DNA of 64,000 nt from assembly GCA_051294905.1 (NCBI GenBank), contig CM119371.1, positions 25,112,001-25,176,000 of the forward strand. The letters are read 5' to 3'. The notes below the pieces were generated by a model. It did not search any database. It was given only the letters and a program-made list of their open reading frames with translations, and had not been told where the DNA came from. This DNA is from Botryllus schlosseri (taxonomy: Eukaryota). Both the position numbers and the translations under genes were made by a program. Of this stretch, positions 1 to 23,231 are shown piece by piece (the stretch's first letter is position 1; each line of letters opens with the position of its first letter).

Positions 1-2510
1 TATATTTGATGTCCCCATCGACCCTCCTATTTTAATAGGGTTACCATGCGGCCTCATTTAGGGGAGTATATGTCCTCCATTTCCCAGATATGTCACCCCA
101 TTCGCCCAAATGTACTATCTTTCTGTCGGTTTGTCCTCCTTGTTAGCTTAACATATCCAAAAAAACACCACGAGTAACGCAAAATGTGGGCCTAGATTAC
201 AAAAGTCGGGTATGTAGCTAAATCGGAAAAATGTCGCTATGATGGTATTGTGCCGGCTATTACGTGGATACGGTGGCCTGTGTAAACATGTGAATAGTAA
301 AATCGCCCCAAACTCCCGTTACATGAGAAAAGATCGAGCGTAATCGACCATGTCGGGCCCACCTTCGTACAGCCAAATGATCCAATTTCGTACCGAGAAT
401 AGCCGGGGTGGTGGTACATCATTCTCACGAGATGTACTTTGGAATGCGTGTGAAATCGTCATCGTCCGCTACTCGACTAAAGCAGAATATAGCTTTGAAG
501 TACTCAAGTAGAAGTAGTTTTAAAAGAAATGTCGGTATCGTGAAATTGCTTTCTATCCTAATTATAAAGAGTAGGCCTCCATAAAACTATCGAGCCAAAA
601 TACAGTTTCGAAGCGACCCGGTAATTTGTAAATCTTATCTATGGGTTGCGCGGTGTGGTAATTGATTAGAGAGAAGCAGACACGGCGGTGCCTGTATAAC
701 GAGGCTGTTCTCAAATCCACATTGTCTTCGTTATTATCGGGGAGATATGGCTTTGCAGCGACATTGAGGTAGTTAAAATATATTGGTTAAATACGATTTA
801 TTCCTCATATATGGGGATCAACGGGTGAATAATGTATGGATTCAGTAATTCGCCAAGTACTTCATTTTCTCCGGCCCGCCGACCGAAGGAGTTGCCCGCC
901 CCTTGTATAACACACATGTAAATGGTACAATAGCGACAGCTAACGGTTGTTAATCATCCATAAATATACAGCTAACCGGTAATACAGCCCTCAAGGATAA
1001 ACTAGGAATATCTGTGTGAGTCGCCTCGATCGACCCATGCGGCAAGTTTAGACACGAAAGTATTTTGAGGTGTGATATAATCCCAGTAATTTTACTGTAT
1101 TTTTCCACGCACACGTACCACAATCGAAAACGGGGTTCGTCCGTCTGATTCCCCGCGTTTGCCTCGAAGAAAAGTATCGGAGTGATCATTGGATCTATAC
1201 GCCAAGTCTGTCCACCACTTTTGAGTAGATATTTGGAAAGACCGGCTCGTGATCACCTCCATACAAGGTCTAATAGTTTTGCGTACAGCGAAACTTTGTA
1301 GCGACCTGCGGGCTGTGCATGTGTTGTTAGTGCAATCGTGTTTAGCCCCACAAGAACGTAATCATTTGAGGATGAATAAAATCTTACCCCACAACGATAC
1401 CAAATTTACCCCCTCAACGACTCCAACGGTATGTATTTATGTAAATTTCATATTTTTATGAAAAATCTAATCGACTACAAGATACTGTTACGTACCATCT
1501 CTTTCGGTAGGGTTTGTTAGTATTGTAAAATGATGATCGGTAGTTGTGGTCTTGACACTAGGTCTAAAAGGGTAGGGGTATTCGTTAGTGATACACCCGT
1601 CTGACGGTGGGGTATTTGACAAAATCACTCTGTTTTTACTACGGAAACCATGATCCCACTTACGAGCTCTCATCACTTGTCGTACGAATGCTTGTAATAT
1701 CGGTGTGATGTACTCAAAACAGCTGTGATCACTCGAGTGTGACGCGATCGAAGTCAGTCCTATCAGCTGTCCGAGGAAACTCGTATACTCAGTAAGAGAG
1801 AGAGAGAGAGTCTTTATTTTCATCCAACCAAAATACATAGCACACGGCAGTGATGGTAGTAAAGAAAATATGCTTGCACAGTATTCGGTATTAGATAGGA
1901 TTGATCGATAAGACCGTGAAGGTCATCTAGTCTGATCACACCAGCATCAAACAGGTACACTTGACTCTAAACAGTCTGGTTGTAAAGGTTGACGGCAATG
2001 CGATATATTTGATGTCCCCATCGATCTTCATACTAATGGGGTTGGCGTACGTCCTCCTTCTCCAGGAAAATATCCTCGCATAAATGTACTCCATTTTGTG
2101 AATTTATCTCCCGTTTTAGCTTAAAATACCCAAAAAGACCGCGAATAACGCAAAATAGGGACCTACGAGAAGCGGGTAGGGTCTATCTTGCTGTTTTCGC
2201 ATAATCCTGTTATTCAAATGTAGGATTTTGGTGTAGGTCTGGTTTATAACTTTGTAAAGTGAGGTAAACTCATTACAAAATTACTTTCTGCTTTTAAAGT
2301 CAAACGTGCAAAGAGTAAGTAATTTCACCTGAAACGGTTGAGGAGTAAGTTACAACGACTTGGATATATAGAACTAGTACCGCGTACTCGAATCAGTAGC
2401 GTCTTTTTACACCATTACTCAACCCAAATCCACAACATACCTAAAAACGTGGTGTTGTTTTGTGTATTTCAGTGAAGCAAATTCAATTCTCAAACCACTT
2501 TTCCTGTGCC
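1..2510. repeat. Left arm of giant inverted repeat (may extend past the window edge)
   Basis: Base 1 onward (tatatttgatgtccccatcg) is the reverse complement of the sequence ending at 7584. The match ends at 2510 (ttcctgtgcc) vs 5072 (ggcacaggaa). Mirror ORF pairs: 237-428/7156-7347, 950-1189/6395-6634, 1249-1461/6123-6335, 1488-1838/5737-6096. Confidence 0.97.
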
Positions 2511-5071
2511 CGATCTCAATAAAAATCGATCAAAACCTGATCACCACCTGCGTAATCAATCCGCTGTGTGTAAAATGGTATACCATGTTCGGGTCGATCG
2601 TATGTTAATTTTGCGTGCGATTTGCGTCGATCTGCTGTCGAACAGATATACTTTTGCCTACCCCTGAAGTATACAGTATTACCACGTGGTCTATATTACG
2701 GTTCAGTGGTTAGACAATACAGATTAGAGACGCCCCGTACTGATCAATATAGTCGGATACTCCCAATCTGCTCAGTCGTGGTTCTTGACTCTCCAAGACC
2801 TCTGTAAGCATCAGTCTATCTCACTGTTTGTAGTGCCAATTTCAAACTTCGTAATAGTGATCACTCGCTCATGTGTAGAATATAGAAATTGACGCCTGTC
2901 CTATTTGCACGACCTCATGGCTTTGGTAAACTTACTGCCAAGTTGGACATTGATTGATAGTTTTCTTGTTAGCGTCGATATTCGCTCGTACGTGCTTTCA
3001 TCTCTTTGAATGTTTGTTATCATCGAGGGTGGTCATAAATAGACAGTGGGACAAATTTGATGCGTTCAACACAATACGCGTTTACCGCATCTCATTCCGG
3101 ACCGTAACCGATCGTTTACCGCACCTTTTATACGATAAATGTCGCTTTTCACTCATAGGTAAGCCGATGATCTGTGAAAACACAGGCGCTAACGTGTCAT
3201 TTCGTTGTTCCTCCAACGTCACATGACCGCCTATGTAGGCTTTTGGGGTGCCCATCAATACAGTGTTGATCCATAAGGACCCCACTGTGTGCTATACGCC
3301 TCAATAAATATGTTTACTCGAGTTTACACCTGGTGTGGAGCAGTAAAGTGGGTGCAAAAAGTAGATTAGACAACACAAACCAGTTGACTACATCGATTAA
3401 TATACGTGGTTTGATCAATTTTGTCAAGTTACTTTTGAATGGATGTTATTTGTTTGTTTTTTGATGGATAAGATTGTATTCAATCATAAACTACTAATAT
3501 ACTTCTTTTGGTGCTAAACCTGATTATACAAATGAATCAAACAGTATTCCACCAATTGGGAGTAGATGCCCGTCGTCGTGATTGACCTCCTAGTTCGCGG
3601 TGGTAACGAAGAATGTATAACACAAGTGTAAATCGTACAATAGCGACAATTAACTGTTGTCAGTCGTCCACAATAATACAGCTAACCAGTATTGCAGTGC
3701 GAATACGTACTCCGAACGAAAGGTATCGAATCTCAATCGTCCTGTGATTAGAAACCCCATAACCAGGCAAGAGTTGATCAAACGTCAAAAATTGAATATG
3801 ATAAACGTAGCTTTTTTCTCACACGTAACCCGATGACGTGCGAAGACACAGCGATAACGTACCTTTGTCGTTATTATCTCAACGCTACACGACAGCGTAT
3901 GTAGCCATTGGGATGCGGTACCCGTCCACACAGTATTGAACGCGATCCACAAGGACCCCCGCTGCGTGCCATACGTTTAATTTAATATTTTTATTCGTTA
4001 CCGACACCTAGCGCGGGTACTGAAGTGGCTACACAATTGGAGTAGCCAATATAAACCGGGGCTTATTATTAGTAATTAATCGTGTCTAGCTGCTTATACA
4101 ACGAACGTCTTTTCCACCATAAACTGGTGATCGATTGCTATTACATAGGAAAAAAAATTAATAAGCGTACACAAATAAGTGTATAGTTGAGCGGTGAACA
4201 ACAGTGAACACTTATCTGTCTTTTTTTCTACAAACAACTTGATACAGATATTGTGACTTACCAGACTTACACAAACCACACCACCGTCGCAATAATGATC
4301 ACTCACTCATGCTTAGAAAGCAGAAATTGACGCCTCGATGATTATTTTTACGACCTCGTGGCCTTGGTAGGCTTACTAAAGCGGAGAAGCCACTGTCAAA
4401 TTGTACATTAAATTGATTTGTGTTCGTTCTCTTGTTAGCGTTGATATTCGTTGGTGTGTGCGTTCACGCTTTTAAAATTTATGCTGGTTTTTGGGGTGCT
4501 CATCAATATTGTTGAACGTGATCTATAACGACCCCACTGCGCGCTATACGCACGACTCGTCCTAGTCGAGTATTAGAAACGAGCATGAAAGTGGGTGAGC
4601 ATATATCGCATATAGCGATAGCCCGTTAAATTAGGCCACAAGCTGTGAAATGTTGTGTGATATGCTCGCCCGCAGTGTAGTGCACACAGTCTTTCGGTAC
4701 ATCCGATAATGCGCGTCCACACTTTCCAAACGCATAGTCACGGGGTATGGCGGGGGACCCGGAAACTCGGGACATAACTTATTAGTAATTTTACCCGATG
4801 ACGTATTTTAGCATGCGGGTCGGTTTTAATGCTTTGCCGTCGTCGTGTTTTGTCTGACGAGTGTAAAATTTCAACTAGATGTACACTGTACAATGTGTAC
4901 GCTGTACATACCCCCGATCAAGCAGTAGCGTTCAAAATGCGTTTAACCCAACGGAATACCGATAATCACGTCACTATTTGAAACTATATACAGAGCGCGG
5001 GTCAATTGGGGGAAATAACATCCATTCAAAAAAGTCACTAGTTATGAGTATGTGTTATGGTCCTGTGTTAT

Positions 5072-7584
5072 GGCACAGGAAAAGTGGTTTGAGAATTGAA
5101 TTTGCTTCACTGAAATACACAAAACAACACCACGTTTTTAGGTATGTTGTGGATTTGGGTTGAGTAATGGTGTAAAAAGACGCTACTGATTCGAGTACGC
5201 GGTACTAGTTCTATATATCCAAGTCGTTGTAACTTACTCCTCAACCGTTTCAGGTGAAATTACTTACTCTTTGCACGTTTGACTTTAAAAGCAGAAAGTA
5301 ATTTTGTAATGAGTTTACCTCACTTTACAAAGTTATAAACCAGACCTACACCAAAATCCTACATTTGAATAACAGGATTATGCGAAAACAGCAAGATAGA
5401 CCCTACCCGCTTCTCGTAGGTCCCTATTTTGCGTTATTCGCGGTCTTTTTGGGTATTTTAAGCTAAAACGGGAGATAAATTCACAAAATGGAGTACATTT
5501 ATGCGAGGATATTTTCCTGGAGAAGGAGGACGTACGCCAACCCCATTAGTATGAGGATCGATGGGGACATCAAATATATCGCATTGCCGTCAACCTTTAC
5601 AACCAGACTGTTTAGAGTCAAGTGTACCTGTTTGATGCTGGTGTGATCAGACTAGATGACCTTCACGGTCTTATCGATCAATCCTATCTAATACCGAATA
5701 CTGTGCAAGCATATTTTCTTTACTACCATCACTGCCGTGTGCTATGTATTTTGGTTGGATGAAAATAAAGACTCTCTCTCTCTCTCTCTTACTGAGTATA
5801 CGAGTTTCCTCGGACAGCTGATAGGACTGACTTCGATCGCGTCACACTCGAGTGATCACAGCTGTTTTGAGTACATCACACCGATATTACAAGCATTCGT
5901 ACGACAAGTGATGAGAGCTCGTAAGTGGGATCATGGTTTCCGTAGTAAAAACAGAGTGATTTTGTCAAATACCCCACCGTCAGACGGGTGTATCACTAAC
6001 GAATACCCCTACCCTTTTAGACCTAGTGTCAAGACCACAACTACCGATCATCATTTTACAATACTAACAAACCCTACCGAAAGAGATGGTACGTAACAGT
6101 ATCTTGTAGTCGATTAGATTTTTCATAAAAATATGAAATTTACATAAATACATACCGTTGGAGTCGTTGAGGGGGTAAATTTGGTATCGTTGTGGGGTAA
6201 GATTTTATTCATCCTCAAATGATTACGTTCTTGTGGGGCTAAACACGATTGCACTAACAACACATGCACAGCCCGCAGGTCGCTACAAAGTTTCGCTGTA
6301 CGCAAAACTATTAGACCTTGTATGGAGGTGATCACGAGCCGGTCTTTCCAAATATCTACTCAAAAGTGGTGGACAGACTTGGCGTATAGATCCAATGATC
6401 ACTCCGATACTTTTCTTCGAGGCAAACGCGGGGAATCAGACGGACGAACCCCGTTTTCGATTGTGGTACGTGTGCGTGGAAACATACAGTAAAATTACTG
6501 GGATTATATCACACCTCAAAATACTTTCGTGTCTAAACTTGCCGCATGGGTCGATCGAGGCGACTCACACAGATATTCCTAGTTTATCCTTGAGGGCTGT
6601 ATTACCGGTTAGCTGTATATTTATGGATGATTAACAACCGTTAGCTGTCGCTATTGTACCATTTACATGTGTGTTATACAAGGGGCGGGCAACTCCTTCG
6701 GTCGGCGGGCCGGAGAAAATGAAGTACTTGGCGAATTACTGAATCCATACATTATTCACCCGTTGATCCCCATATATGAGGAATAAATCGTATTTAACCA
6801 ATATATTTTAACTACCTCAATGTCGCTGCAAAGCCATATCTCCCCGATAATAACGAAGACAATGTGGATTTGAGAACAGCCTCGTTATACAGGCACCGCC
6901 GTGTTTGCTTCTCTCTAATCAATTACCACACCGCGCAACCCATAGATAAGATTTACAAATTACCAGGTCGCTTCGAAACTGTATTTTGGCTCGATAGTTT
7001 TATGGAGGCCTACTCTTTATAATTAGGATAGAAAGCAATTTCACGATACCGACATTTCTTTTAAAACTACTTCTACTTGAGTACTTCAAAGCTATATTCT
7101 GCTTTAGTCGAGTAGCGGACGATGACGATTTCACACGCATTCCAAAGTACATCTCGTGAGAATGATGTACCACCACCCCGGCTATTCTCGGTACGAAATT
7201 GGATCATTTGGCTGTAAGAAGGTGGGCCCGACATGGTCGATTACGCTCGATCGTTTCTCATGTAACGGGAGTTTGGGGCGATTTTACTATTCACATGTTT
7301 ACACAGGCCACCGTATCCACGTAATAGCCTGCACAATACCATCATAGCGACATTTTTCCGATTTAGCTACATACCCGACTTTTGTAATCTAGGCCCACAT
7401 TTTGCGTTACTCGTGGTGTTTTTTTTGGATATGTTAAGCTAACAAGGAGGACAAACCGACAGAAAGATAGTACATTTGGGCGAATGGGGTGACATATCTG
7501 GGAAATGGAGGACATATACTCCCCTAAATGAGGCCGCATGGTAACCCTATTAAAATAGGAGGGTCGATGGGGACATCAAATATA
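5072..7584. repeat. Right arm of giant inverted repeat
   Basis: Reverse complement of 1-2510 with only a few substitutions and two slippage indels ((AG)8 vs (CT)9; one A/T run). Confidence 0.97.
6679..7040 (+). mobile_element. Partial hAT-type MITE inside the palindrome arm (mirror copy at ~545-906)
   Basis: Starts caaggggcgggcaac and aligns by eye for ~300 bp with the TIR/TSD-bounded MITE at 36058-37177. Confidence 0.7.
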
Positions 7585-8197
7585 TCGCACTGTGTTGCTG
7601 ACAACCCGAAAACGCGAGTTTTTGTCAAGTCGCAGATTGATGACTGACAGCGATTGTGTCACGCTCGATTGATCACAGCTGATTTACGTACATCACACCG
7701 CATCGTTGACCGTTGACCGCATGTTGACCGATAAAGTTATTGTCATCGTGATACAATTTTTATCAATATACTCCTTGAGGTGCCAAATCTGATCGCACTA
7801 ATAACACCTGTATAGACGAATCAAACAGAATTCCGCCAAAGGGGCGATACCAAGTCTCTTTGTACGTGAATTATTATACAACGACACCTATATTACAGCA
7901 GAAAAATCTTGTCTGGACGGAGGAGGTCACGAAACATCTCCGGACCCGGCACAGATTTCATCAGTTTTCAGCGAAGCCAGACTGGATGCGGCCAAATGGC
8001 CTTGAGAGTCGGATTTATGCTGTATTTTGCCCTCGCAACATGTGAAAATAACAGGACTTTACGTGCTAGCCGGATTTTTTGGACTTTGAATTAGCAACCC
8101 GAGTATAATCTGTCACAATTCATTCCCATTATTGCACCACCGAGCGCGTTTCAGTCAAATAAGGTCAGCCCATATTGCAGTTCAAGCATGTGCAGTA

Positions 8198-8306
8198 ATG
8201 ATTACGTCATTATGATTGGTAGTTGATTACTCTAGTTATTACGAGAGCGGCTTTGCTTGGTTCCGGTTCAGTAACGCTGAGATATGATTACGTCATTATT
8301 GCGTAA
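8198..8306 (+). promoter_or_regulatory. Duplicated 16-mer with CRE/ATF-like core plus a C/EBP-like site upstream of the death-domain ORF
   Basis: ATGATTACGTCATTAT at 8198-8213 and 8284-8299; TTGCGTAA immediately after the second copy; TATATAA at ~8353. Confidence 0.45.
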
Positions 8307-8407
8307 GTTGATCGCCTTATTTGTTATTGTAGTTGAACCAAGTGCAAGGCAATATATAACGTGTAATATTTATTACATGATTGTTCGCTGTACACTGTAG
8401 ATCGAAT

Positions 8408-8689
8408 ATGTCCAAGATTACTGCTAGTGATATATACGTCACATTGGATCGGATTGACCCGATGAACTGGTATAGGTTTGCACGTGAAAAACTTGAGCTA
8501 TCTGACAATGAAATTGCCGAATGCCAATACACGGATTGCTATAACTTGACTGAGCAACGATATCAAATGATACAGTTATGGATTCGTAAAAATGGTCGTT
8601 ACGCTACGATGAACAAACTTAAAGAATTAGTTTACAGTTGTCTGTATCAGATACCTTCGAATAGCAATTCAACTGTTCTGTTGGATTGA
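8408..8689 (+). CDS. Death domain protein (93 aa; stand-alone gene or terminal exon)
   Basis: MSKITASDIYVTLDRIDPMNWYRFAREKLELSDNEIAECQYTDCYNLTEQRYQMIQLWIRKNGRYATMNKLKELV matches the death-domain pattern W..(F/L)AR.L.L....I......EQ.YQML..W....G..AT...L. ATG at 8408, with a possible acceptor AG at 8399-8400. Confidence 0.85.
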   Translation: MSKITASDIYVTLDRIDPMNWYRFAREKLELSDNEIAECQYTDCYNLTEQRYQMIQLWIRKNGRYATMNKLKELVYSCLYQIPSNSNSTVLLD

Positions 8690-8998
8690 GAGACATAGCG
8701 TACTAAGAGGAGAATAATATTGTGTAGACTGGAGAATAATGAAGATGCTCTCAGAAGACTTCAATATCGGTTTATACGCAATCATATGCTGATCTATGCG
8801 AAACTGGTATTGCTTTCACATCGCAAATCAAAAAAAGGATTCTGATATCAAGAAAGTATGCCAAGCTCTGAAAGAAGCTCTACACCTTGTTCTGGACGAT
8901 TAGTTAATGTGCTTGCCCCGTTATTACTTCAAATAAACTGAACATGTGTATTTAATTGTGTAAAATGTGTTATTCGCACGTGGCGACGATTCCCACAG

Positions 8999-9434
8999 AT
9001 CATTTCTCCTCACTATTTAAGTCAACAAAAAAGCAAAAGGCGGACAAGTACGACAGTATGAGACAGACCACAAGCATCACTTTACACAGCCGGACGTATG
9101 GACACCTAAAACACGCACCAGAATATAACGGATCAGAAGAAAACTATACTGACGTCACGACCGGTAATTATTCCTATGACCCACCGTACACGAAATTGAA
9201 TCAACCGCGGAACGACGAGTCAACCAGTTTGACGGGTTATTGCTCCCAAGCCACGAAATTGTACCACGAGACGACGGGTCAGGGCAGGCAACTATTATCA
9301 ACCCCCGTCCAGGATCTCATGGATCAGAAGAATACTATACTGACGTCACGACCGGCAATTATTCCTATGACCCCCCGTACACGAAATTGAATCAAACGCG
9401 GATCGACAAGTCATCCAGGGGATTTGACGGGTAA
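8999..9434 (+). pseudogene. Tyrosine-motif-rich exon-like segment with an internal frameshifting duplication
   Basis: Acceptor ttcccacag at 8998, then YDSM, TYGHL, ENYTDV, PPYTKL. The peptide GSEE.YTDVTTGNYSYDPPYTKLNQ occurs twice, in different frames (ORFs 8956-9390 and 9240-9434). Confidence 0.4.
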
Positions 9435-9490
9435 TTATTCCCAAGACTCGTCCTTGGATTGACCATGGACCGATAGGTCAGGACAGGCCA
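9130..9490 (+). repeat. Tandem duplication, period 191 bp, about two copies
   Basis: gatcagaaga...tatactgacgtcacgaccgg...attattcctatgac...cgtacacgaaattgaatcaa at 9131 and 9322. Confidence 0.9.
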
Positions 9491-11434
9491 GGTCTCGTGT
9501 CCAGAGGTCAAGCGAGGTAAAATCAGGAGTGGAAAAGTACAAGTAGAAGTACTCCAGTCTCATGTCTGAGTACAAAGGTCAATCCAGATTCTTTGTTCGT
9601 TTTCTCTCTATCGTTAATTATTCCCCCTTTTTTTATTGCCGCACAAAAGGTCATAAAAGTATTGCTGCAAAATTGAGAATGAGCTAATTCTTTCAGTATC
9701 TTTTATATTGATAATTCTTGTTTGTTTAAGTTAAATCGTGTTTTGGCACATTCCGCCCATTTATATACTACTCACGCTTCTCTATTCAAACTTACGTCAT
9801 CACAGCTATAACCCCCACGTAAACTCATATTTATCTAAAATATTCTGATCAGAAGATGCATTAATGATGTATACAAAAATTATTAGCGAAACCGGAGCAT
9901 GCTAAATAAGTCGATATATCAGGAATCGTATGTAGAAATATAGGCTCGGTTTAAAATTGGCCTATATGTCGAATATACAAACATAAATATCAAATTTCAA
10001 CATCATATCTTATAAACAAGTGAGGGTATGATAATAGTGGCAGTATGCACTATTTTATTATAACGCAAAGCAAAATTAATTCAGACTAATATCTCTTAAA
10101 TATTTTTCATATTGCTTTAACTAGTATGTTACTATGGTTACTGTATTTGTTATACATCTGTGATTATTATTTTCTTCTATGTTGCAGACTGTCCACTGTT
10201 ATATTTATTTAAATGAATACACTCGATTACTTCACTGCCATGGAGGTGACGAGTAACGAGGCCTTCATAGCCCATATCGTCACCTCCAGTCAAACTTTTA
10301 TGTTTGACGAAGCAATAAATGTCTGTCTGACTGTCTTTTTTACCAGCCGGAAACTGCTCGCAAGATAAGTTTGAATGCCGAGACGGAGGTACATGCATTC
10401 GTGTTTCGGATTTCTGCGATGGAATCAAGCAGTGCAAGTATTATAGTTGATTTCAGCATTTTCTGAAGCATCTCTTTTCTTAGTGTGCACATCGTAAGTA
10501 GAGGTCAGCGGTAGGGTGTCATTTGGAATGTCCAGGATGTCACGAGAAGACGTGATACTACGCCCAATCATCTTAAATCTGTTACGTGCGTATTTTATGT
10601 ACTGAAACCCATTGATGTTGCAATTCAGTTTGTCCTGACGCCAGGCCAATGATTTCTGACAGCATTATTGAATGATGTTTACATTTCTCGGATGAACGCG
10701 ATAATAAGTTTTATAATTCTTATGTTAGCCGAGTTTCCGTGTACATCAGTTTTCTCACATCCCAGTTATTATATCGGATTATTGCAGGCAGACACCAGCG
10801 GTACATGTTGAAATTAATCGCCAGGACTTTATTTGAATATTGTCGTATAATATTTCAGAATAGCTTTTTTATATAAGAAACCAACGCATTAATATTGTAA
10901 TATTATACTAAGGTTACCCTATGTCCTCAGTTAGCAGGATTCTCTCTCCTATTTTAGGAAATAGAAAATGTCCTCAGAGGATGCCTAAATGTCCTCTGTT
11001 TTTGAAATTTGTCTTCCTTATAGATTTGAAAGGCTTAACTGAAACGCCCTAAATGACGCGAATCTGTAATGTGGACGTTCCAGCGGGTCATTCTGGAGTA
11101 TAGGACCGGAGTATGACTTTTTTTAATTTTGCACAGGATTATCGTTAAAAAGTTGGAAATTCGGGCGACGAATCGGAATTACGAATGTTCTTTTAATCAA
11201 CACAACAAGATTTCCAGTATGGGTTTAGGAATCTGCAGATTTCTAGTGTGCGCCTGCAATAAGCTCACAGGAAAGTCGTTAAGATTTGTCTAAATGCGTT
11301 TGAAGTGGCTGCTGTAAAGTGGGCGTACCAGCGACCATAGAACGGCGAGAAGACTAGTAATCACGAAATCACAGCGCTTGATTGGGTAATCGGCTATGCT
11401 TGAATGATTACCACAGTGGCGGTTTGCTGATCAG

Positions 11435-12616
11435 TAGGGCGATTTTTTTTTGACCTAAAAAACGGATGATTTTGACCTAAAAAATCTAAATTTTGACTTT
11501 TTTTGACCTAAAAAAACTGAAATTTGACCAAATTTTGACCTCACGTATGCAAATTAGGTGTTTTCGCACATAATGTTAAAATTGAACTACTTATCTTCAT
11601 TTCTGGATGGAACTGTCTGTCCTTACAAAGTAGATTGGCCTGAAAAAACGTTTTTGGCTCAAAAACTGACAAATTTTTACATGAAAAAACTAATATTTTA
11701 ACGAAATCTGGCCCTATGAAGAATTGCAGTAGTTGCATTATGTATTATGGTGGAATAATTAAAATTTGTTGTAGTACAACGAAAGATACTTTCCTACATT
11801 CTCGGGTGAAAAGTGTTTGTTTTGTTTGTTTGTTTTGTGGTATTCATGGTGTGTGTCAACTACTATGGTCATTTACACAAGGCCGATATTCATCATTATT
11901 TTCCGTAACTGTCAACATATAGCACGGCCCACCTCTAGTCTTTTTTGTAAGACACCGCTTACGCGGATGAGGTGGCGAGGCGGAGCCTAGGTAAACCTCC
12001 AACACTTAGCTATCGGAATTATGAAGTCGACCTCGGTCGGAATCGAACCCACACCCATTGGTGTTGCAGCCGCGGATTATACCACTGCGCTATCTCGGGT
12101 AGAAAGTGTCTGTTCTTACTAAGTAGGCTAGCTTGCCAAGAATGGAGAAAGAACGTTCAACAGCAGCAGTTGTTAGCTGACAAAACTGAAGTTGTGTGCA
12201 CACTGCTTGCTGGTGATGCACCGTGTTGCTTCATTCTGACAATGTTGTCTATATCACAATTTTTCAGCTTGCGCTTCTTGATGTAAGAACCATGCAATGC
12301 CCAAGCAGTCTTGCTTCAGTTAGGATATTGCGGTACGTTGACCATAAAACCATGCCACTATTTGTTTCATTTGATCGTTTATGATTCACAATGAGCAGAC
12401 GATGGGCCGTTTACAACGGTAGGCCTATAAAGTAGGCTACAGGCTGTAAATTATCAAATGATAAGTTCACAGACAGCGCAAAATCTACGATTCAAACGAA
12501 ATGTAGAGGTCAAAAAATGTTTGATTTTGTAAACAATTTTGACAAATTTTGACCTAACGCTACAATTTTGACCTAATTTTGACTTTTTTTGACATGTCAA
12601 AAAAAAAATCGCCCTA
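11435..12616. mobile_element. hAT-type MITE with subterminal ttttgacc repeats, carrying a SINE
   Basis: TIR tagggcgatttttttt / aaaaaaaatcgcccta; perfect 8-bp TSD CTGATCAG (11427-11434, 12617-12624). Partial second copy at ~43454-43920. Confidence 0.9.
11816..12095 (-). mobile_element. tRNA-derived SINE
   Basis: (TTTG)n tail, A/B-box head on the minus strand, flanking direct repeat tctcgggt(g/ag)aaagtgt; same family as the copy at 15962. Confidence 0.85.
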
Positions 12617-12649
12617 CTGATCAGCTGTTCAAGGAGTCTGGCAACGGCG

Positions 12650-15600
12650 ATTCTCGAAAATGTTGGGTATAAATGTCTCATTCTATAGCTTATTGATAAA
12701 AAAACAGCAATGAGCCTGAAATAAGCTCACAGGAAAGTCGTAAGATTTGTCGCAAAGCATTTGAAAGTAGCTAGTAACTACCGATGTGTGGGCGTGCCAG
12801 CGACCATAGAGCGGCAACAAGACTAGTAATCACGAAATCGCGACTCTCGATTGGCTAATTGGCTATGCTTTAATGATCACGACGGTGGTGGCTTGCTGAT
12901 TAGTTGTTAACGGAGTTTGCTAACGGCGGTGATTCTGTAAGCGCATTATAGGTTGGCTGGCAGATAATGATTTAAACTAAATTCAGGACATGTTGAACTA
13001 CTAAATACATGATGATGATGATGAACAAACAACAGCTGCTTAACACAAACTCAAAGCATGACTGTCTTATTGTGAAGGAAACCGCCTTGGCCTACATGTA
13101 TGTTTTGACCGAGGGAAAGCACAGAACGTGCGAAGAAATATTGCAAAGGCGCGTATGCAAATGGCGAACGAACTTCTTGTTTCAGAAGGGATGCATCATC
13201 ATTTAATACAAATAAAAAGCTTACCAATGACAATGATCTTATTAGGTTCCAGTCGTGGTATATAATTGAAGTCCAGAATGCCTTAAGGATTGGCTGAATC
13301 AGCCGTTTATGGTGGGGACTCTTACAGCAAAATGAAATCACTCGTAAGTGATGTTGAAGTCATCAATGATGCAGCACAAGGAGCTGTAGGAGTACAACCA
13401 CAGACTATGCTGGCATGACCATTAAAATACAGTTTGCTTGTATAACTTAGCCTTAGAGAATTGCAGGCATGATAGAGGTGAAACGGCAAATTATTGTGCA
13501 CTAAATATAAATCCAAGAAATACCTAGTTATGGTTGCAATTACGTCTGTGCTCCAACTTTTCTGGGCGTAAGTCAAGTATATTAGTCATCGTGAACTGGT
13601 GCAGCACACCATATGTGAGATGGTTGCCGCAAAAAATCTTATCTGCTCAGAAGATGTTATATGGGCTTACCAGATAGCTTATATAATGGAACCCCGACGA
13701 AATGTAACTATCGCTCCGCTTCAATGGATTTTAAGCTCGTTTTATATCAATGTCTGGTGTGATTCCAGCATTTGTAGTGTTGAAGCCGGTACTGATTCAA
13801 GATTCATTCAAGGTATGCTAAGATATACCAGCAACCTGTATTTTTGCTGCAGCCACACCAGCATAGTCTGTGCTTACCTTTACACCTCTTTCTACGGCAT
13901 CATTGACGACTTTGACAGCATTTTTGAATTCATTTTGCTGTAAGAATTTACTAAGTACCCGGCATAAATGGCTGATTCAGCCAATCCTTATAGCATTAAA
14001 GACTTGAGTTATACAGCAGTGTCATTGTTAAGCTTTGTATTTGTATTCAATTATGACGCATCCCTTCTGAAACAAGAAATTCGTTCGCCACTTGCATGAG
14101 CGCCTTTGCAATATTTCTCCGTGTGTTCTGTGCTTTCACTCGGTCAAAACTGACATGTGGGCTACTGCGGTTTTCTTCACAATAAGACAGTCATGCTTTA
14201 AAGTTCATGTGAAACAGCTGTTGTATGTTCATCATCATCAGAGCCGTAACAGCACTTGGTCAGCCCCCCAAAAAAAACTTTGGTCTTGGGCCCCCTATAG
14301 GGTTATAGGCCGAACTTCTGGGGGGCTTCGCCCCCCAGACCCCCTCCAGTGGTACACTGTTTACATATATTGATCTTATTCATTGGGAATTGGTTTAGTG
14401 AAAGCCTTTGTCGCCTAAGCGCGCGAAGCGCGGAAAATTTCTAGAATTCATGATTGAATCGGTCAGTATGATCGGGAATTGCATATATATTGTTATTAAT
14501 TTTTATCTTCTCTCTGCTCACGTAATCAGATTTGCCGGTAGAGCTGAGTGAGGTGTTTTTGAAAAGGTAGGACCACTCAATAATAATTACACATCTTCGG
14601 GCGTAGACCCGTTGGCAGGAACGAAACAGTACCTCGTCAGGCCCCAAAAAACGTGGGTCTTGGGCTCCAATAGGGTGTAAAACGAACCCCCATCACGCTG
14701 TTCGCGTTTGTCACGAAATCATCTGTACTGTATTGTGAGGCAGCGCGAAGCGCGGACCCGTTGATATGACTTCGTTACGTGATGTTATTTCGTGACGTCC
14801 ATTCTACTATATCAAAAAATGTAGAATCGCCCAAACGTAGGCTTCTAAACTAAGAGACGCCCACGATTTCAAATTGGCATTTCTTCACTGGCATACAATT
14901 TTTCCCAGCGGGATGGTATTTGTCTTGTGAGGTTCAGATTGCAAAGACAGGAACATTTGGTGCCAGTCATTTAGGCGCCTATGGACAATTAAACCTATAT
15001 GTATTTTGTATATATAACGAAGTCTTCGGTCAGCATACGGGCATAGACCTTTTCGGCCAAGGTTTTCTCGCTGCCGATCGTTCTGGCACACTTCTTGGAG
15101 TCGCATGTTATACGGCCTAAAACTTGATTGTATGTCTTGGTGGGTCGTGGCGCGGTAATGGCCCAATACCCAGTAATAAAGAAAAACGGCTACTTGAATT
15201 TGAATTTGAAATTTGAAATTTGAAAAAATTGCGTAAATTTTCAAAAAATACTCTATGATTTATGCTAATTCACGAAATAATTTTGGGCCCCCGTTGAGCT
15301 CGCCCCACCCCCCAATTGGGGGGTTTGGGGTGCGGCAGTTACGGTGCTGATCATCATGTATTTACTAACTCAACATGTCCTTAATTAATCTTAAACCAAC
15401 ATCTGCCAACCAACCTGCAATGCGCTTACAGAATCACCGCCGTTAGCAAACTCCTTTAACAACTAATCAGCAAGTCACCACAGTCGTGATCATTGAAGAT
15501 CAGCCAATCGAGAGTCGCGATTTCGTGATTACTAGTCTTGTTGCCGTTCTATGGTCGCTGACACGACCACTCGTCGGCAGCTACTTTCAAACGCTTTGCG

Positions 15601-15725
15601 ACAAATCTTAACGACATTGCTATGAGATTATTCCAGGCTCATTGCTGTTTTTTTTATCAATAATCTATAGAATGAGACGTTGATACCCAACATTTTTGAG
15701 ATTTTCCAAATTTAGGACAACCCTA
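12650..15725. mobile_element. Foldback non-autonomous element with inverted arms holding hAT-like transposase C-terminal remnants
   Basis: 12650-13410 is a diverged reverse complement of ~13860-14238 plus 15350-15700. Arms encode VEVINDAAQGAV (+, ~13350) and VKVVNDAVERGVKVSTDYA (-, ~13860-13920). Right terminus ggacaacccta. Confidence 0.75.
14239..15349. mobile_element. hAT-type MITE
   Basis: TIR cagagccgtaac / gttacggtgctg; perfect TSD ATCATCAT (14231-14238, 15350-15357); inverted homolog at 21133-22339. Confidence 0.9.
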
Positions 15726-15961
15726 ATATATATATATGTATATTGTACATGTACACTAGGGTTGTCCAAAATTTGGAAAATCTCAAAATGTCTCCGTGAA
15801 TGTGTCTCATTCTATAGATTATTGATAAAAAAAAACAATTAGCCTAAAAGAAGCTTACAGGAAAGCCGTTAAGATTTCAGACAAAGCGTTTGAAAGTAGC
15901 TGCTCAAGAATTGGCGTGCCACTGACCATAGAACGGCGAGAAGACTAGTAATCAAAAGTCG

Positions 15962-17808
15962 TGGCGAGATAGCGCAGTGGTATAATTCGCGGATGCGACA
16001 CCAATGGGTGCGGGTTCGAGTCCGACCGAGGTCGCCTTCCGAATTTCGATACCTAAGTGTTGGAGGTTTACCTAGGCTCCTCCTCGCCACCTCATCCGCG
16101 TCAGCGGTGTCTTCCAAAAGCCTAGAGGTAGGCCGTGCGATAAGTCGGCAGTTGCGGAAAATAAGAAGAATATCGGCCTGGTGTAAATGACCATAGTAGT
16201 CGACACCAGAGTTGGATCAATTACATTATTTCAGTTCAATTACAATTACAATTACAATTACTTTCATGCATGTTTCAATTACATTACAATTACAATTACT
16301 CCTTGCTAAAAATATCAAATTACAATTACAATTACAATTACTCCTTAAATGCTTCAATTACATTACAATTACAATTACAATTGCTGCTGTTGAACATGTA
16401 ATTGAATAATCATAAATTCAACCGTGCTCCTTGACAACCGTAGCGTCGTATTTAACAACAATTCAAGTCTAGTTCAGATTGTGTAGTAATAAATGCGTTT
16501 ATGTGCGTACAGTACATAGTATGCTATGTAAGATGTCACTGTGACGTAATATAAGCGTGTTTTGTATGCTCGGTAATTATGACTCATGTATTTGGAAATG
16601 TAAAATGTTATTTACCTAATTTCCTATGGGTTAGGATTAAGCATAGGGTGCAGTATGTCATTAAAAAAGATTTATAATATATGCACGTGTTGGATTTGCG
16701 TATATAGTATATAATTAAAGAAATAATATTATTTTTATCGAGGGACGTAGGAATTAGGATGAGGAGTAAAAACAAAACCGTGCTTTGTCAGATAAGACGT
16801 TATATAATATCCAGTGGTCTGGTTAGTTAGCCAGACGAAGTAACGATGCAGCATCGTGATCTGAAATCGTATTATAGATTGCCAACCCACGGATAGATGC
16901 GCAAGATGTGAGTCCCGGATGAATGTACCGACAAACGTACTGCAGAGCCGGCTAAAAGCAGCAAACTTCGTAGTCCTAGAACTGGCGATCCATGCGTTCA
17001 AATTTGATGCATCTGGTCTTTATCGTAAGCTATTGATGTACTAATTCCGAAAAAACAAAATAAAATCTCGTCAGGGCAATGTAACTGCTCCAAAATAGCC
17101 GTTTAAGGCCGACTGTTCTGAAAAGTGAGAGCGCTGCAGCAGCATGACCACAACAATTACCAATTACGCCCAGCGATTGTTCAGAACAATGCCGATTCCC
17201 AGACTTTCCCGACTATTTTGGGATGGTACCATTGCCTGGAAATATACTTTTATTGCGGAATCAGTGCGACAGTAGCTTTCGATTAGGACCATACATGTCA
17301 AATTTCGACGCATGGATCGCCAGCTATGGGACCATCAATTCTGCTGCTTTTAGCCGGCTCAGCAGTTCGCTTCTCGGCGTATTCAATCGTGAGTAACGTG
17401 TTGCGAATCCATCCGTTGGTTAGTAATTTAAAAATTGTATACAATGGCAGCCGAGGCCAGCATAGCGGTAAAAATGAAAAAACTTCGCCCGCAAGGGCGC
17501 AGTCAAGGGCTTTTCCGAATGGATCCACCAAATTCCTTGTCGACATTTAAAGAGAATGCATTATAAGTCAATTATTTCATGTTGTGCTTGTCAGGTCTCA
17601 ATAGCAATTTAATGTAATTGAAATTGTAATTGAGCAAAATTTTTGTCAAATTACAATTACAATTACAATTACACAAAATAAAAATGCTTCAATTACAATT
17701 AAATTACAATTACATTGAAAAATGTAATTAATTACATTCAATTACAATTTACAATTGATCCAACTCTGGTCGACACACACCACGAATACCCCAAAAACAA
17801 ACAAACAA
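15962..17808 (+). mobile_element. tRNA-derived SINE interrupted by the MITE at 16207-17768
   Basis: A box TAGCGCAGTGG, B box GGTTCGAGTCC, (CAAA)n tail at ~17795-17808, TSD actagtaatcaaa (15944-15956, 17809-17821). Confidence 0.9.
16207..17768. mobile_element. hAT-type MITE with (TTACAA)n subterminal arrays
   Basis: TIR cagagttggatcaatt / aattgatccaactctg; perfect TSD GTCGACAC (16199-16206, 17769-17776). Confidence 0.92.
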
Positions 17809-20800
17809 ACTAGTAATCAAATAACCATGGCTCTCGGTTGGCTAATCGGCTATGCTTCTATGACCACGGCAGCAGCAGCTTGCTGATTAGGTGTTCAAGA
17901 AGTCTGCTACCGGCGGGGATTCTGAGTGTGAATTGTTAGTGGTTTGGCAGGTGGTGATTTAAGATTAATTCAGGACATGTTGAGGTACGAAATACATGAT
18001 GAACAAACAACACCTGCTTCACAGAAGCTTTTACAGCATGACTGCTTTATTGTGAAGGAAACGGCGTGTCGTGTTTTGATCAATAGAAAGCAAAGGCGCT
18101 TATGCAAGTGTTGAGCGAATTCACCGTTTCAGTACGGATCCACCATCAGTGAATACAAATATATAAAGCTTAACAATGACACTATACTTTGTATGATCTT
18201 ATTGAATCCAAGTTGTAGTATATAGTCGAAGTATTAAAGGTTCTAGGGATCGACTACTGAATCGGCCGGTTATGCTTGGCAGTTATACTTACAGCAAATT
18301 GAATTCACTTATAAGAGTTGTCAAAGTCCTTAATGATGCTGCAGAAAAGAGGTGTAAGGTAAGCACAGGCTATGCTGAATATGATATCCATACTATGCTG
18401 GATACTATATGCAACATAGTCTGTGCTTTTCTTTACAGCTCTTTTCTGCGGGGTCAATAGAACTTTGACATACCACATCCAGCATAGCCTGTTCGAGTGT
18501 GCGTACATGAACATCTCTTTTCTGCGTTATTATTAAGGGCTTTAACAACGCCGACAAGTGATATCAATTTGTTGTAAGCATATGATAAGTGCCAAGCATA
18601 ACCGGCTGATTCCGCCGATCCCTAGAGCATTCAAAACGTCACCTATATATAGCTTCAGCCCAATAAGATCACACAAAGTATAGTGTCATTGTTAAGCTTT
18701 ATATATTTGTATTCAAGTACACATCTTATAGTTTACAGTTTTCGGTACTTTTATAAGCCATTTTTAAAGAGGGTATCACGTACCCTTTCTCGGAAAATAT
18801 TACTTGTGCTCCAACTTATGGAGCTAGAGCTATTTAAAAAAGTCACGGGTCGGGCATACCGTGCGTTGACATATGATCGAGTTTGGTAATCATCAATCGA
18901 TTTCGTTCCGGTGGTAACTTGTGTGCGTGAATCACATAATTCCTAGCACAGTGAACCGAACGTTTACTGAGCATGTCGACATCATTCAGCATGTTGTTTA
19001 ATGATTGCCTGACGCACAAGCAGTTCCCCAATTATGCATTCAATCACGTATTATCAAGATGTATACTCATTTGGTTTTATTTCATATCTTGAAGATTACT
19101 TGAAATCTTGAAAATTTACGTGAGTATGGTCAAAGGTCACGCAAGGTTGGACTCCAGCAATTGAATCACTGAATCGAGTTAACATAAGCGTATTATAAAA
19201 GACATTGATGTATACTGCATAGTTATCAATAAATAATGAAATTGATAGTTTATCGCGGTAGCGCAGCTAATGATATACGAACAGGCAATGGTGCATGCAG
19301 GACTAATATATTTGTATTGTGGATTATTACTAGGAATATTGTCATAGTTTGTAATGGATCAAAGAAAATTTCGTTGAGAAATAGTTCCAAAAATATGATC
19401 AGGAAACCACAGAATTCTAAGAACAGAGAAGAAAAGAGTTTGAATTCACTAATACGTGATATTGGATCTGTGCATCTGCCTTGCTAATCTTTACTAAATC
19501 TTTACGAAACTATAATAGATTGACACGTCATTGCGAAGTTGTTTGGAGCAGTTTTTACGCGTTAAAGTTTGTGAGGTACAAGCGTCATATACTTGTCACA
19601 AACTAACACTTGACGGAACTGCTTTGCATAGCTTTGATATCAATTTCCAACACCGTTTTTACTGGGAGGCTTTTCATGGTATCGCCACACAACAATATTC
19701 ATTCTGTTTTAGCCTACAATTCGCCGTGACTAACAAATTCGCATTTGCGATTTTTTTGTGGTGCGACTCTTTGAACACCGAGTTTTGTGATAGGCCTATA
19801 CGGTTCGAGCACGCAACTGGTCTAGTCATCGATGTTATATCAAAACGGCGATTCCATAACGATCTATGCGAGGTGTCTTGCTTTAATTGTAAACTATTGT
19901 AGTGAAATATTCCTTTGATAAAGCGGGTGGAAATGAGCAAATTTCTGAAGTTAATCATGATTGTCTCACGGATCACTACTTTCAGAGGTGGGCAATTATT
20001 CTTCCAGACGGGACAAATGAGAAGAAAAAATAGCTTGGCGGGCAAAGCCAAACGTTTAAACCAGTGGTTCTCAACCTGGGGCCCGCGGACCCCTGTAGGT
20101 CCGCGAAGCATTTTCAGAGGGTCCGCGAAGATTCTATACTTGCAAAATGATTGATTATTACTGCTACAGCTACATGACTCACATCAGCAGAGTGGCCGTC
20201 TTAGATGAAATATCCTACTGTGCAAACTCATTTTAATTGCCAAATTGCCAACAGCCTACTGATAAAACATATTGCCGTTTAGAGATGTTTTGTTGGGGTG
20301 TGTGAAAAAAATGATAGAGTTGGAATATTAATGTCAATCAGTGTGACTTCAAATGTTTGCATGAATCCATTCTTCCGGTGACATACATAACTACTATCCC
20401 AGAACGACTTCAAGATGATTTGCTAGATATAAACGACTGGGATGAACGTTATATGTTCAATGAAAAATCCGGGTTTCAATTTCGGTGGTGTTTATGCTGC
20501 GGACATACTCGAAGGGGTCGTCGGTGCACGTTATTATACCATTCGTCACCACCTATTTTTGTAGACATAAATGTTTACCACTCATTCATATCAAATAGAA
20601 GGGGTGGATTTTCAAGATACGACCACGTATTTCAAGAAATGCAGCTGCGGAATTCGCTACCGTCCACCAAATTCCCGCATAATTAGTGTGATGTTAATAT
20701 GTTGCTATTTGGCTCTAGCCTGCAATCACTTTCGCAAACACAGATGACGGTTGTACGATAATTGAGATTATTTTTGGTATTCATGGTGTTTGTCGACTAC

Positions 20801-20861
20801 TGCTGTCATACTCACCAGGCCAAATTTCTTCATTACTGTTCCGTTGCTGCCGTCTTATAGC

Positions 20862-23231
20862 CAGGGCATGGTATGGTATGGTATGGAACGAGGATTTTCC
20901 ATACTCCATACTTGCCTTACTCTCTCCATACCATACTTGCAATATTCCATACCATACCAACATTGTTCCATACCATACTTGATACATATTCCATACTTTC
21001 AAATACTTCGATATCATAAGTATAGTACCTTTTCTAGCACCTGTATTATTGATATTTCGGATCAAATTATTGCTTAAACTAGCCATGATGCGAGTCTCTC
21101 TGTTTTTGTGAGGTTTAGTTCATGGTGATGAGCAGGGCCGTAACTGTCGCACCCGAACCCCTCCCCCCTCCCATTTAGGGAGGCGAGCTCAAAGGGGGCC
21201 TAAAATTATTTCGTGAATGAGCATAAATTACGCGATTTCAAGTTGCCAAGTATTTTGATTTTGGGGTACTCTTCCCCCAAGAAAAAATACGCAAGATTTA
21301 TAGAAATAGGCATATCGGCGTTGGCCACTACCGAGCCACGATGCCCCAAGACATATAAAGTTTTAGGCCGTGTAACAACTGTAACATGCGACTCCAAGAA
21401 GTGTGCCAAAACGATCGACAGCGAGAAAACCTTGGCCGAAAAGGACTGCCCTTAGGCTGATCGAAAACTTCGTTATATACAAAATACACGCCGAATGTTC
21501 CTGTCTTGGCAATCTGAACCTCACAAGACAAATACCATCCCGCAGGGAAAAATTATATGCCAGTGAAGAAATACCAATTTGAAATCGTATGCGTCTTTTA
21601 GCTTAGTAGCCTACGTTTGGGCAATTCTATCTTTTTGATATAGCAGACAGGAGGTCACGAAATAACATCATGTTACGGAGTTATACCAACGGGCCCTACA
21701 GTTTCCATAACACCTCACTCAGCTCTATCGGTAAATCTGATTATACGTGAGCAGAAAGGACAAGAAATTGATAGCAATATATATGCAATTCCCGATCTTA
21801 TTGACCGATTTTATCATGAATTTTTGGCAATTTTCGCGCTTTGCTTTGCCCGGCTAGTTACGTGGCAAAAGCGAATAACGTGATTGGGGGTAGGTTTATC
21901 ACTCTATGGGAGCCCAAGACCCAAGTTTTTTTGGGGGGCCTTACGAAGTGCTGTTTCGTTCCTGCCAACGGGTATGCGGCCGATGATGTTTAATTATTAT
22001 TGAGAGGTCCTACCTTTTCAAACACACCTCCCTCAGCTCTACCTGTAAATCTGATTACGTGAGCAGAGAGAGGATAAAAATTTATATCAATATGTATGCA
22101 ATTCTCAATCATATTGACCGATTCAATCATGAATTATAGAAATTTTTCGCGCTTGGCGCGTGCAGGCTGGGGAAGCTGACGCAGCTAACGGCCCCAATGT
22201 AGATAAGTAGCGATAAACAGTGTATAACCTAAGAGGGTCTTGGGGGTGAGGCCCCCCATAAGCTCGGTTTATCATCATATGGGGGCCCAAGACCAACGTT
22301 TCATGGGGGGGGGGCTGACGAAGTGCTGTTACGGCCCCGGTGGCGAGGTGTCGTGTGCGTCTACTCTACAGCTTCCGCGAGCCAAATGAACTGGCCAGCG
22401 GATTGTTATCTAGCTAGGACCGTCCACAAGAATATCATCGCATTTTCGATACATTGGCATGAGGCACATGCAAGTTTGAAGTAAATATTCGCAAAATAAT
22501 TTATGATATAGGCGCACCCATAAAATATTATAGCTGCAGGCGATCAATACTGCAGCGATCTGCGTGATTTTTAGTACAGTATTTGGTTGGGGTTAGCGTG
22601 GCGATAATTTCAAACTATATCTACCCCACTCCCTGATCTATAATCCTAATGCGAGAGCGTTTGAAATACGACTAATAAGATATCTTGGTATGTAAATAGC
22701 GTAAATGTGGCGGACAATGTTTCAGAAGAAATGAAATTATCAATCACATAGAGCTATTAGTACATTGCAGCATGATTGCTCGTAAGCTGTCGTCACTCAA
22801 GGAATGAGGTAGTTGGATTAGCCTACATTACCAATTATTGCGCAACATGATAGACTATGCTCAGAGACGTCGTGTATTGATTCGATAGAATATGGGATCA
22901 ACATTAATGTTGTTATTATTACATCACAAAATAATGTCATTCCAAGTACTCTTAAATCCGTTGCACAAGCGTGTATTTGTTCCTGTACACAGCGTTCAAT
23001 AGTTCACACATAAGCGATTGTATTTCGTGAACAGCGAACAGCGTACGCTTCATGAAGCTCGCACAGATCACGATAAAATGTATAAAACACCAAAGTATGG
23101 AAATGTCGTTCCATACCATAGATTAAAATCTTCCATTCCATACCATACTTGCATTGTTCCATATTCCATACCAAAATATCGATCCATACCATACCATACT
23201 TCCATACCATGCCAAACCATACCATGCGCTG
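20862..23231. mobile_element. hAT-type MITE with (ATGGT)n / (CCATA)n subterminal repeats
   Basis: TIR cagggcatggtatgg / ccataccatgcgctg; perfect TSD CTTATAGC (20854-20861, 23232-23239). Confidence 0.9.
21133..22339. mobile_element. hAT-type MITE (family of 14239-15349)
   Basis: TIR cagggccgtaac / gttacggccccg; degenerate TSD GTGATGAG/GTGGCGAG. Confidence 0.85.

Follow-up and report, generated by a model that had tools for sequence, protein, structure and literature searches.

The closest described systems to the locus treated here are the Maverick/Polinton elements of vertebrates and insects and the viruses that resemble them in cargo. The commonest end motif of vertebrate Mavericks is (AGT)2//(ACT)2, their target-site duplications (TSDs) measure 6 bp, and their end repeat has been linked to jump-back priming (Barreat and Katzourakis 2021, PMC8097293). 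Insect polintons whose terminal inverted repeats (TIRs) of 2 kb bear genes, as well as mobile polintons that lack polB, have been reported (bioRxiv 10.1101/2025.02.07.637071), and adintoviruses carry homologues of Bcl2 and IAP (Starrett et al. 2021, PMC8502044). Human fold-back duplications, which also have an arm-spacer-arm layout, show spacers of 766-70,466 bp (median 3,428) and 2-8 bp of inverted microhomology (Hermetz et al. 2014, PMC3907307). Here we analysed 64,000 bp of the Botryllus schlosseri genome (GCA_051294905.1, contig CM119371.1, positions 25,112,001 to 25,176,000, forward strand; this whole stretch is called the window), which opens with a giant inverted repeat. We consider it probable, if by no means certain, that this repeat belongs to a ~12-kb multi-copy, palindromic, non-autonomous Maverick/Polinton-type element with death-domain cargo that was formed by copy-back.

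Inverted repeat and multi-copy unit

BLASTN self-comparison of the window gave a single dominant off-diagonal match, in which positions 1-2510 pair with 7584-5072 over 2,513 columns at 99.60% identity around a spacer of 2,561 bp (2511-5071). This confirms the inverted repeat of the original prediction, which was made from the letters alone, and also its remark that the match reaches base 1. The roughly ten differences counted there by eye come to nine events in the alignment, namely seven substitutions (left-arm positions 254, 331, 367, 619, 679, 1101 and 2027) and two indels with one gap opening each (1 nt in an A-run at 158 and 2 nt in an AG run at 1794). The T/K, L/R, G/C and K/T changes and the AG-run frame shift that had been read from the mirror open reading frames (ORFs) are all visible. 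As had been claimed, the arms are far more alike than other repeat pairs, the runners-up of at least 200 nt in the window reaching ~90% identity. The arm differences lean weakly toward the outer end (mean position, P 0.034, in a test picked post hoc), and the inner 483 bp of the arms are identical (P 0.15).

The segment 2511-10000, or part of it, was contained in 20 of the 24 public runs listed, and the best DNA run has 0.64 of the sampled words. None of the runs listed as containing it is recorded as RNA, which does not bear on expression. Four of these 24 runs were aligned on 2461-9960: the contig sets X1, X6 and X14 and the raw RNA run X23. The DNA-like runs consist of contigs, not reads, and the runs need not derive from the assembled individual; because summed contig depth is not a copy number, we use it only as a contrast. 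Individual contigs and variants are described from 24 of 31,145 aligned pieces and 40 of 463 variant rows. The parts of the locus are as follows.

1-2510, + strand: visible part of the left arm, from the self-alignment; it runs off the window edge.
2511-3960, no strand: high-copy part of the spacer (X1 bins 4,058-10,331), continuous with the left arm in other copies of the family.
3961-5071, no strand: lower-copy part of the spacer (bins 361-846 in X1, 496-1,668 in X6 and 0-2.4 in X14).
5072-7584, - strand: part of the right arm with a visible mirror, from the self-alignment.
5596-5790, no strand: ~194-bp very high-copy insertion ending in a TC run (X1 bins 143,000-332,000; X6 joints 5594>5788 and 5596>5791).
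6681-6954, no strand: short dispersed repeat within the arm (mirror 630-903), with raised depth and loose ends at 6681 and 6714.
7585-9772, no strand: putative outer right arm, in the high-copy unit shared with 5072-7584 (X1 bins 9,204-25,164 up to 9710, then 1,205).

Contigs of X1 and X6 are stacked over the whole of 2461 to ~9770 and those of X14 over most of it, and the depth collapses beyond. The summed depth in X1 is ~4,000-10,300 over 2461-3960, 361-846 over 3961-4960, ~5,000-17,500 over the right arm (the two small insertions aside) and 9,200-15,700 over 7711-9460; the X6 profile has the same shape, as does that of X14 at low depth. Single X6 contigs within the unit reach depths of 2,117 and 3,984, versus 10 for the unique flanking contig. 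The unit is clearly multi-copy in X1, X6 and X14. In the lower-copy part of the spacer, 3961-5071, modules of 2849-3381 recur in diverged form (66-78%).

We are dealing with a large family of mixed structure. Sorted by likeness, X1 contigs number 8,087 at 99% and above, 9,120 at 95-99%, 7,674 at 90-95% and 1,165 lower, so that the arms, at 99.6%, are closer to each other than many of the contigs are to the window. Contig joints mark copies without the 194-bp insertion, copies that skip 5911-6446 or 2936-4412, and copies that join the outer arm straight to a spacer module. The 194-bp insertion is present in both arms (mirror ~1795-1988) and absent from some family copies, and the 6681-6954 repeat recurs at 36059-36347 (78% over 289 columns). 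The family is also present in X14, which carries another organism label (organism B); both the left junction and the death-domain ORF described below occur there.

Right end of the unit

Between the bins 9461-9710 and 9711-9960 the depth falls from 25,164 to 1,205 in X1, from 28,525 to 2,263 in X6 and from 54 to 0.9 in X14, and the drop brackets the boundary between 9710 and ~9774. A 444-bp contig of depth 10 covers 9744-9960 with no mismatches and ends at 9744. Assuming that contigs overlap the repeat by 30 letters (31-letter words), we read from this an edge no more than a few bases from 9772-9774, where we noted two features.

9767-9772, + strand: candidate right terminus, ACTACT, equal to the (ACT)2 Maverick end motif (PMC8097293), at the boundary bracketed by depth.
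9773-9778, + strand: predicted right copy of a 6-bp TSD, CACGCT, its length taken from the same source.

ACTACT occurs 25 times in the 64 kb, so that the chance of finding it is ~0.003 within 7 positions and 0.025 within the 65-nt bracket. A 16-nt terminal pattern with up to three mismatches has its sole window match at 9757-9772, and terminal patterns of 19 and 20 nt had no exact match in viral and metagenome contigs. Were the mirror to continue all the way, the predicted lengths would be 4,701 bp for each arm and 11,963 bp for the whole element; the left terminus would then be expected ~2,188 bp upstream of base 1, following a copy of 9773-9778. The original prediction had suggested that sequence right of 7584, possibly with the death-domain gene, may also be mirrored outside the window. 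The high-copy unit does include the death-domain ORF. The coordinates proposed at that time end 2.2 kb short of the likely right end.

Coding content and the death-domain ORF

We looked for the Maverick core genes (protein-primed polymerase, integrase, ATPase, protease and capsid proteins) in a six-frame Pfam scan of 2511-9772, with stops read as X and E up to 1, a setting from which badly decayed remnants could escape. None was found in the six frames, and Death was the single Pfam family in this segment; 1-2510 mirrors a part of the sequence scanned. PHROGs matched none of nine ORFs. Since neither scan gave a core gene, the element is not an autonomous Maverick. The one recognisable coding feature is the following.

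8408-8689, + strand: intronless 93-codon death-domain ORF reading toward the terminus (Pfam Death, PF00531, 1.1e-10).

The ORF scores 41.9 bits with PF00531, against a cut-off of 22.6, and a search among 1.84 billion representatives returned 24 matches. The first, P0001, is an 83-aa database protein that is 96% identical and has a shorter tail; the best after it, P0002, is 49% identical over residues 1-75 (E 2.4e-9), aligned from Met1. We scanned 19 of the 23 non-family matches for domains, and five have a caspase domain, including three of the top four; P0002, P0004, P0005 and P0013 are caspases with an N-terminal death domain. A paper on Ciona caspases names, in its available parts, only CARD and DED prodomains (PMC10923776). 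P0002 is nearest by path in a tree of 20 domains and no supported branch joins the ORF to caspases; because the tree gives no supported grouping, descent from a caspase prodomain, as the sequence matches suggest, is only a lead. No caspase remnant was found downstream of the ORF in the window. A second, decayed death domain suspected by eye at ~8700-8900 was unsupported by a profile of 16 homologous domains.

The closest solved sequence is the TNFR1 death domain (E 2.1e-5). The best of five P0001 models (pLDDT 85.8; the others 54-61) has a helical death fold with a TM of 0.69-0.75 to that domain. Foldseek with this model gave death domains in its top rows, the best being again TNFR1 (E 2.7e-3) and none reaching 1e-3 or below; among viral structures, a search with the model at E up to 0.001 returned nothing. 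Pattern searches for the ORF gave three matches in viral and 115 in metagenome contigs, none of them confirmed.

In ~6% of the RNA run X23 the depth over 8461-8960 is below 10, and 18 reads depart from the ORF at 8604 (region 8597-8640) into an in-frame, gap-free diverged variant, which reads ATIGRLAELA where the ORF region has ATMNKLKELV (translated by eye). An expressed relative exists elsewhere, possibly the donor gene, and X23 does not establish expression of the window copy. The mirror ORFs had no Pfam, PHROGs or atlas match. As they lack a family match and 1488-1838 starts inside the small high-copy insertion, they are probably not genes.

Origin of the arms and competing explanations

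Among the variant rows, 14 fall in the right arm, and the left arm has the same letter at all 14. Many or most contigs of the family differ from the window at these sites; at 10 of them 95% or more of the depth, in X1 and in X6 alike, carries a different letter, and none of the 14 coincides with an arm-to-arm difference. The two small insertions, too, are found in each arm. A match at all 14 sites would be unlikely between random family members, and the shared letters therefore point to one arm having been copied from the other; contigs drop rare variants, so the arm letters are not proven private. The original prediction offered a recent inverted duplication or homogenised arms; both account for this 14/14 match, but what was doubled is not ordinary single-copy DNA. 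The best fit among its options is a large element, foldback or virus-like, with long inverted arms: the unit runs to ~9772 and ends in a Maverick-type motif.

The arms do not meet the spacer in the same way on both sides. X6 record 17 (2461-2589, depth 2,117) and X14 record 9 cross the left inner junction (2510/2511), which is thus the normal continuity of the family, as copy-back would lead one to expect of the native side; it has no hairpin signal (z -0.26). At the right inner junction we detected the following structure.

5061-5080, + strand: 8-bp hairpin with a 4-nt loop that straddles the inner right junction 5071/5072 (-7 kcal/mol, z -4.35, 0 of 200 shuffles).

A 10-nt direct repeat overlaps this hairpin, and 5013-5031, 40 nt upstream of the right junction, is a 19-nt inverted copy of 3433-3451. 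Stem and direct repeat occur together at 0.013% of window positions, by criteria chosen after viewing the junction. Such an asymmetry is what would be left by copying back on a new strand. It does not separate copy-back from a chromosomal fold-back, because both leave it (PMC3907307).

In the explanation we favour, the element would consist of a terminus, a 4.7-kb arm, the 2.56-kb spacer, a second 4.7-kb arm and a second terminus, with ~9.8 kb of it in the window. Synthesis from one end of a parent element would have passed through arm and spacer and stalled near 5071 at the small hairpin, where polymerisation may have switched to its own new strand via an 8-9 nt match at the inner edge of the arm. 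Copying would then have returned to the starting end, giving two identical origins and integrase sites, and autonomous Mavericks could replicate and integrate the palindrome in trans. Pairing of the arms during replication, or conversion after insertion, might keep the arms alike, the nine differences having arisen since. The death domain would be host-type cargo of the end-proximal region, doubled by the copy-back. If the protein is made at all, its most plausible role would be that of a decoy, keeping a caspase from assembling through its death domain, a speculative and rather improbable reading.

Several observations weigh against this reading. Only one end of the element lies inside the window; its 6-nt motif is weak by itself and was sought post hoc, and the contig break at 9744 might instead reflect a nearby heterozygous site. 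The TIRs of intact vertebrate Mavericks measure 46-1,447 bp (PMC8097293), whereas the arms here reach at least 2.5 kb (predicted 4.7 kb). The comparison of arm and spacer depth suggested with the original prediction could be made as a profile but gave no clean 2:1 ratio. The inner arm in X1 (~5,000-6,700, insertions aside) lies below the high-copy spacer part (8,000-10,300), and for this reason we call the family structurally mixed. X14 has almost no cover of 3961-5071, and no contig among the 24 pieces shown of 31,145 crosses the right junction 5071/5072. Finally, support from RNA is slight: ~6% of X23 yielded 661 aligned reads, of which 97% continue into unlike sequence.

The alternative that survives best, though we regard it as unlikely, is a one-off chromosomal fold-back duplication inside an inserted repeat, with a mirror that stops soon left of base 1 and neither a second terminus nor a second death-domain gene. 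The 2,561-bp spacer and the short inverted junction match fit human fold-backs (PMC3907307), and the right junction was not seen in other copies among the contigs listed. A fold-back requires a normal-copy spacer, whereas ours is multi-copy in X1 and X6, and even its lower-copy part by the right junction has a summed depth of 361-1,668 in these runs versus 10 in the flank. A single repeat unit, which has an end like that of a transposon, encloses the entire structure, and chromosomal fold-backs accompany terminal deletions or translocations (PMC3907307).

A foldback or TIR element of a cut-and-paste superfamily, with ACTACT present by chance or as part of another end motif, seems quite unlikely. 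The boundary is known no more closely than to a few bases, and one such reading would set the end one base further out with a 4-bp TSD, as in Sola2. The window is rich in small hairpin-shaped repeats and decayed transposase-like frames, and non-autonomous elements are classed by termini and TSD jointly (PMC4455052), the TSD here being only predicted. Against this, the boundary motif equals the published Maverick end exactly, and size and host-type death cargo fit Mavericks.

An assembly artefact, either a fold-back chimeric read or a mis-join of near-identical copies or haplotypes, is very unlikely in our view. High-copy repeats are prone to mis-joins, the DNA-like runs consist of contigs and offer no read that spans arm, spacer and arm, and even the best DNA run has just 0.64 of the sampled words. 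On the other side, seven of the nine arm differences are substitutions and not run-length errors, 2.56 kb of distinct sequence separates the arms, the left junction is present in independent runs, and the hairpin and short repeats at the right junction resemble template switching. That two members of a young subfamily inserted separately in opposite orientation, with the right copy cut short at 5072, is highly improbable even in an abundant family that includes contigs at least 99% alike, because the arms agree at 14 of 14 listed variant letters and carry both small insertions, with no terminus or TSD at 5071/5072.

Other features of the unit and the window

The outer right arm contains one further repeat.

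9118-9445, + strand: two-copy direct repeat, 87% alike, with a spacing of ~191 bp (X6 joint 9305>9492).

Neither its open frames nor a Tyr-rich frame at 8956-9390 had a Pfam, PHROGs or atlas match. We saw no sign of a conserved protein in the mirror ORFs or the Tyr-rich frame; one database protein, the 90% identical P0026, shifts its frame against the window sequence. Old internal repeats (65-85%), some of them oppositely oriented, make a patchwork of arm and spacer (2849-4551, 5417-5883, 6190-6271, 6597-6680 and 7390-7844), whereas three shuffles gave none, and TBLASTX among these modules showed stops within the matched frames. The motif TGATCAC, picked after the fact, has eight distinct sites (11 over both strands) in 2511-9772 versus three in the other 54 kb; 300 shuffles gave 1.4 on average and 6 at most. 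Two of these sites are module duplicates and one lies inside an insertion.

The window has a GC content of ~40% without CpG depletion, and Rfam and tRNA scans of it gave no match. Exons that probably belong to a G-protein-coupled receptor gene with LDLa are scattered on the + strand over 26996-54929, with LDLa at 37396-37794 and weak 7tm_1 matches at 53835-54110 and 54543-54929. We also found an exon for a fibrinogen C-terminal domain at 58686-59051 (- strand, E 1.4e-19) and a weak phospholipase A2 match, below the cut-off, at 50759-51151 (+ strand, E 0.006). The LDLa, 7tm_1 and fibrinogen exons mark the window as animal DNA.

Imperfect hairpin-shaped repeats of 150-600 bp, MITE-like and 66-82% self-complementary, are numerous in the window (15526-15954, 16872-17433, 18150-18715, 18319-18470, 26733-26943 and 36540-36834). 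Decayed transposase-like frames were recognised by eye at 28826-31356, 51705-52466 and 61911-62721; the latter two are 67% alike, and seven frames over 28826-31356 and 51705-52466 had no Pfam match. A dispersed repeat of 240-270 bp is present in four copies that are 82-91% alike (11821-12097, 15961-16206, 36727-36974 and 44600-44863), and two degenerate arrays of a 6-nt unit occupy 16237-16382 and 17649-17756.

Comparison with known systems

Copy-back defective viral genomes, known mainly from RNA viruses, have one end on both sides of a short unique middle and are helper-dependent. The locus is alike in this layout and in its presumed helper dependence, and the mechanism is here only inferred. 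Repeat databases list non-autonomous Polintons of zebrafish. Our literature search, outside of which most subscription papers lie, gave no description of palindromic, copy-back or satellite Polintons, including the available parts of PMC6431247, PMC3014272 and PMC4455052, and none of death-domain cargo in Maverick/Polinton elements. Most likely, the locus represents a family new among Maverick derivatives, palindromic, dependent on a helper and carrying a death domain. Its filing as a Maverick member must await the left end and the TSD, although in its workings it resembles a non-autonomous Maverick.

Should the left end bear the prediction out, the element would be a helper-dependent, mostly palindromic Maverick derivative. 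The variants that its arms share offer a test of Maverick replication, and its cargo illustrates a way in which death-domain genes may multiply in an invertebrate genome. As a tentative and rather doubtful extension, a class of core-gene-less copy-back "satellite" Mavericks could exist in the animal germ line, their arms kept identical by the way they replicate, and spread captured cell-death genes; the death-domain-only decoy, derived from the front of a death-domain caspase, would be kept functional so as to block death signalling where the helper replicates.

With human fold-backs the locus shares the arm-spacer-arm order, the kilobase spacer and a putative short inverted match at one junction, but their spacers are normal-copy and lie beside a deletion or translocation (PMC3907307), whereas the spacer in the window is multi-copy. 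Death-domain caspases are alike over the N-terminal domain, and no caspase domain follows the ORF in the window. Vertebrate Mavericks resemble the element in (ACT)2 at the visible end and in an intronless accessory ORF near that end; intact ones measure 12.7-24.6 kb, the predicted ~12 kb here falling just under this range, and they differ from the element in the window, which has no detected core gene (PMC8097293). Insect polintons are alike in long, gene-duplicating inverted arms and in mobility without a full gene set, but they keep most core genes (bioRxiv 10.1101/2025.02.07.637071), while our element has none and, if the prediction holds, is mostly inverted repeat. Adintoviruses share host-type cell-death cargo with it (PMC8502044), which in the window takes the form of a stand-alone death domain instead.

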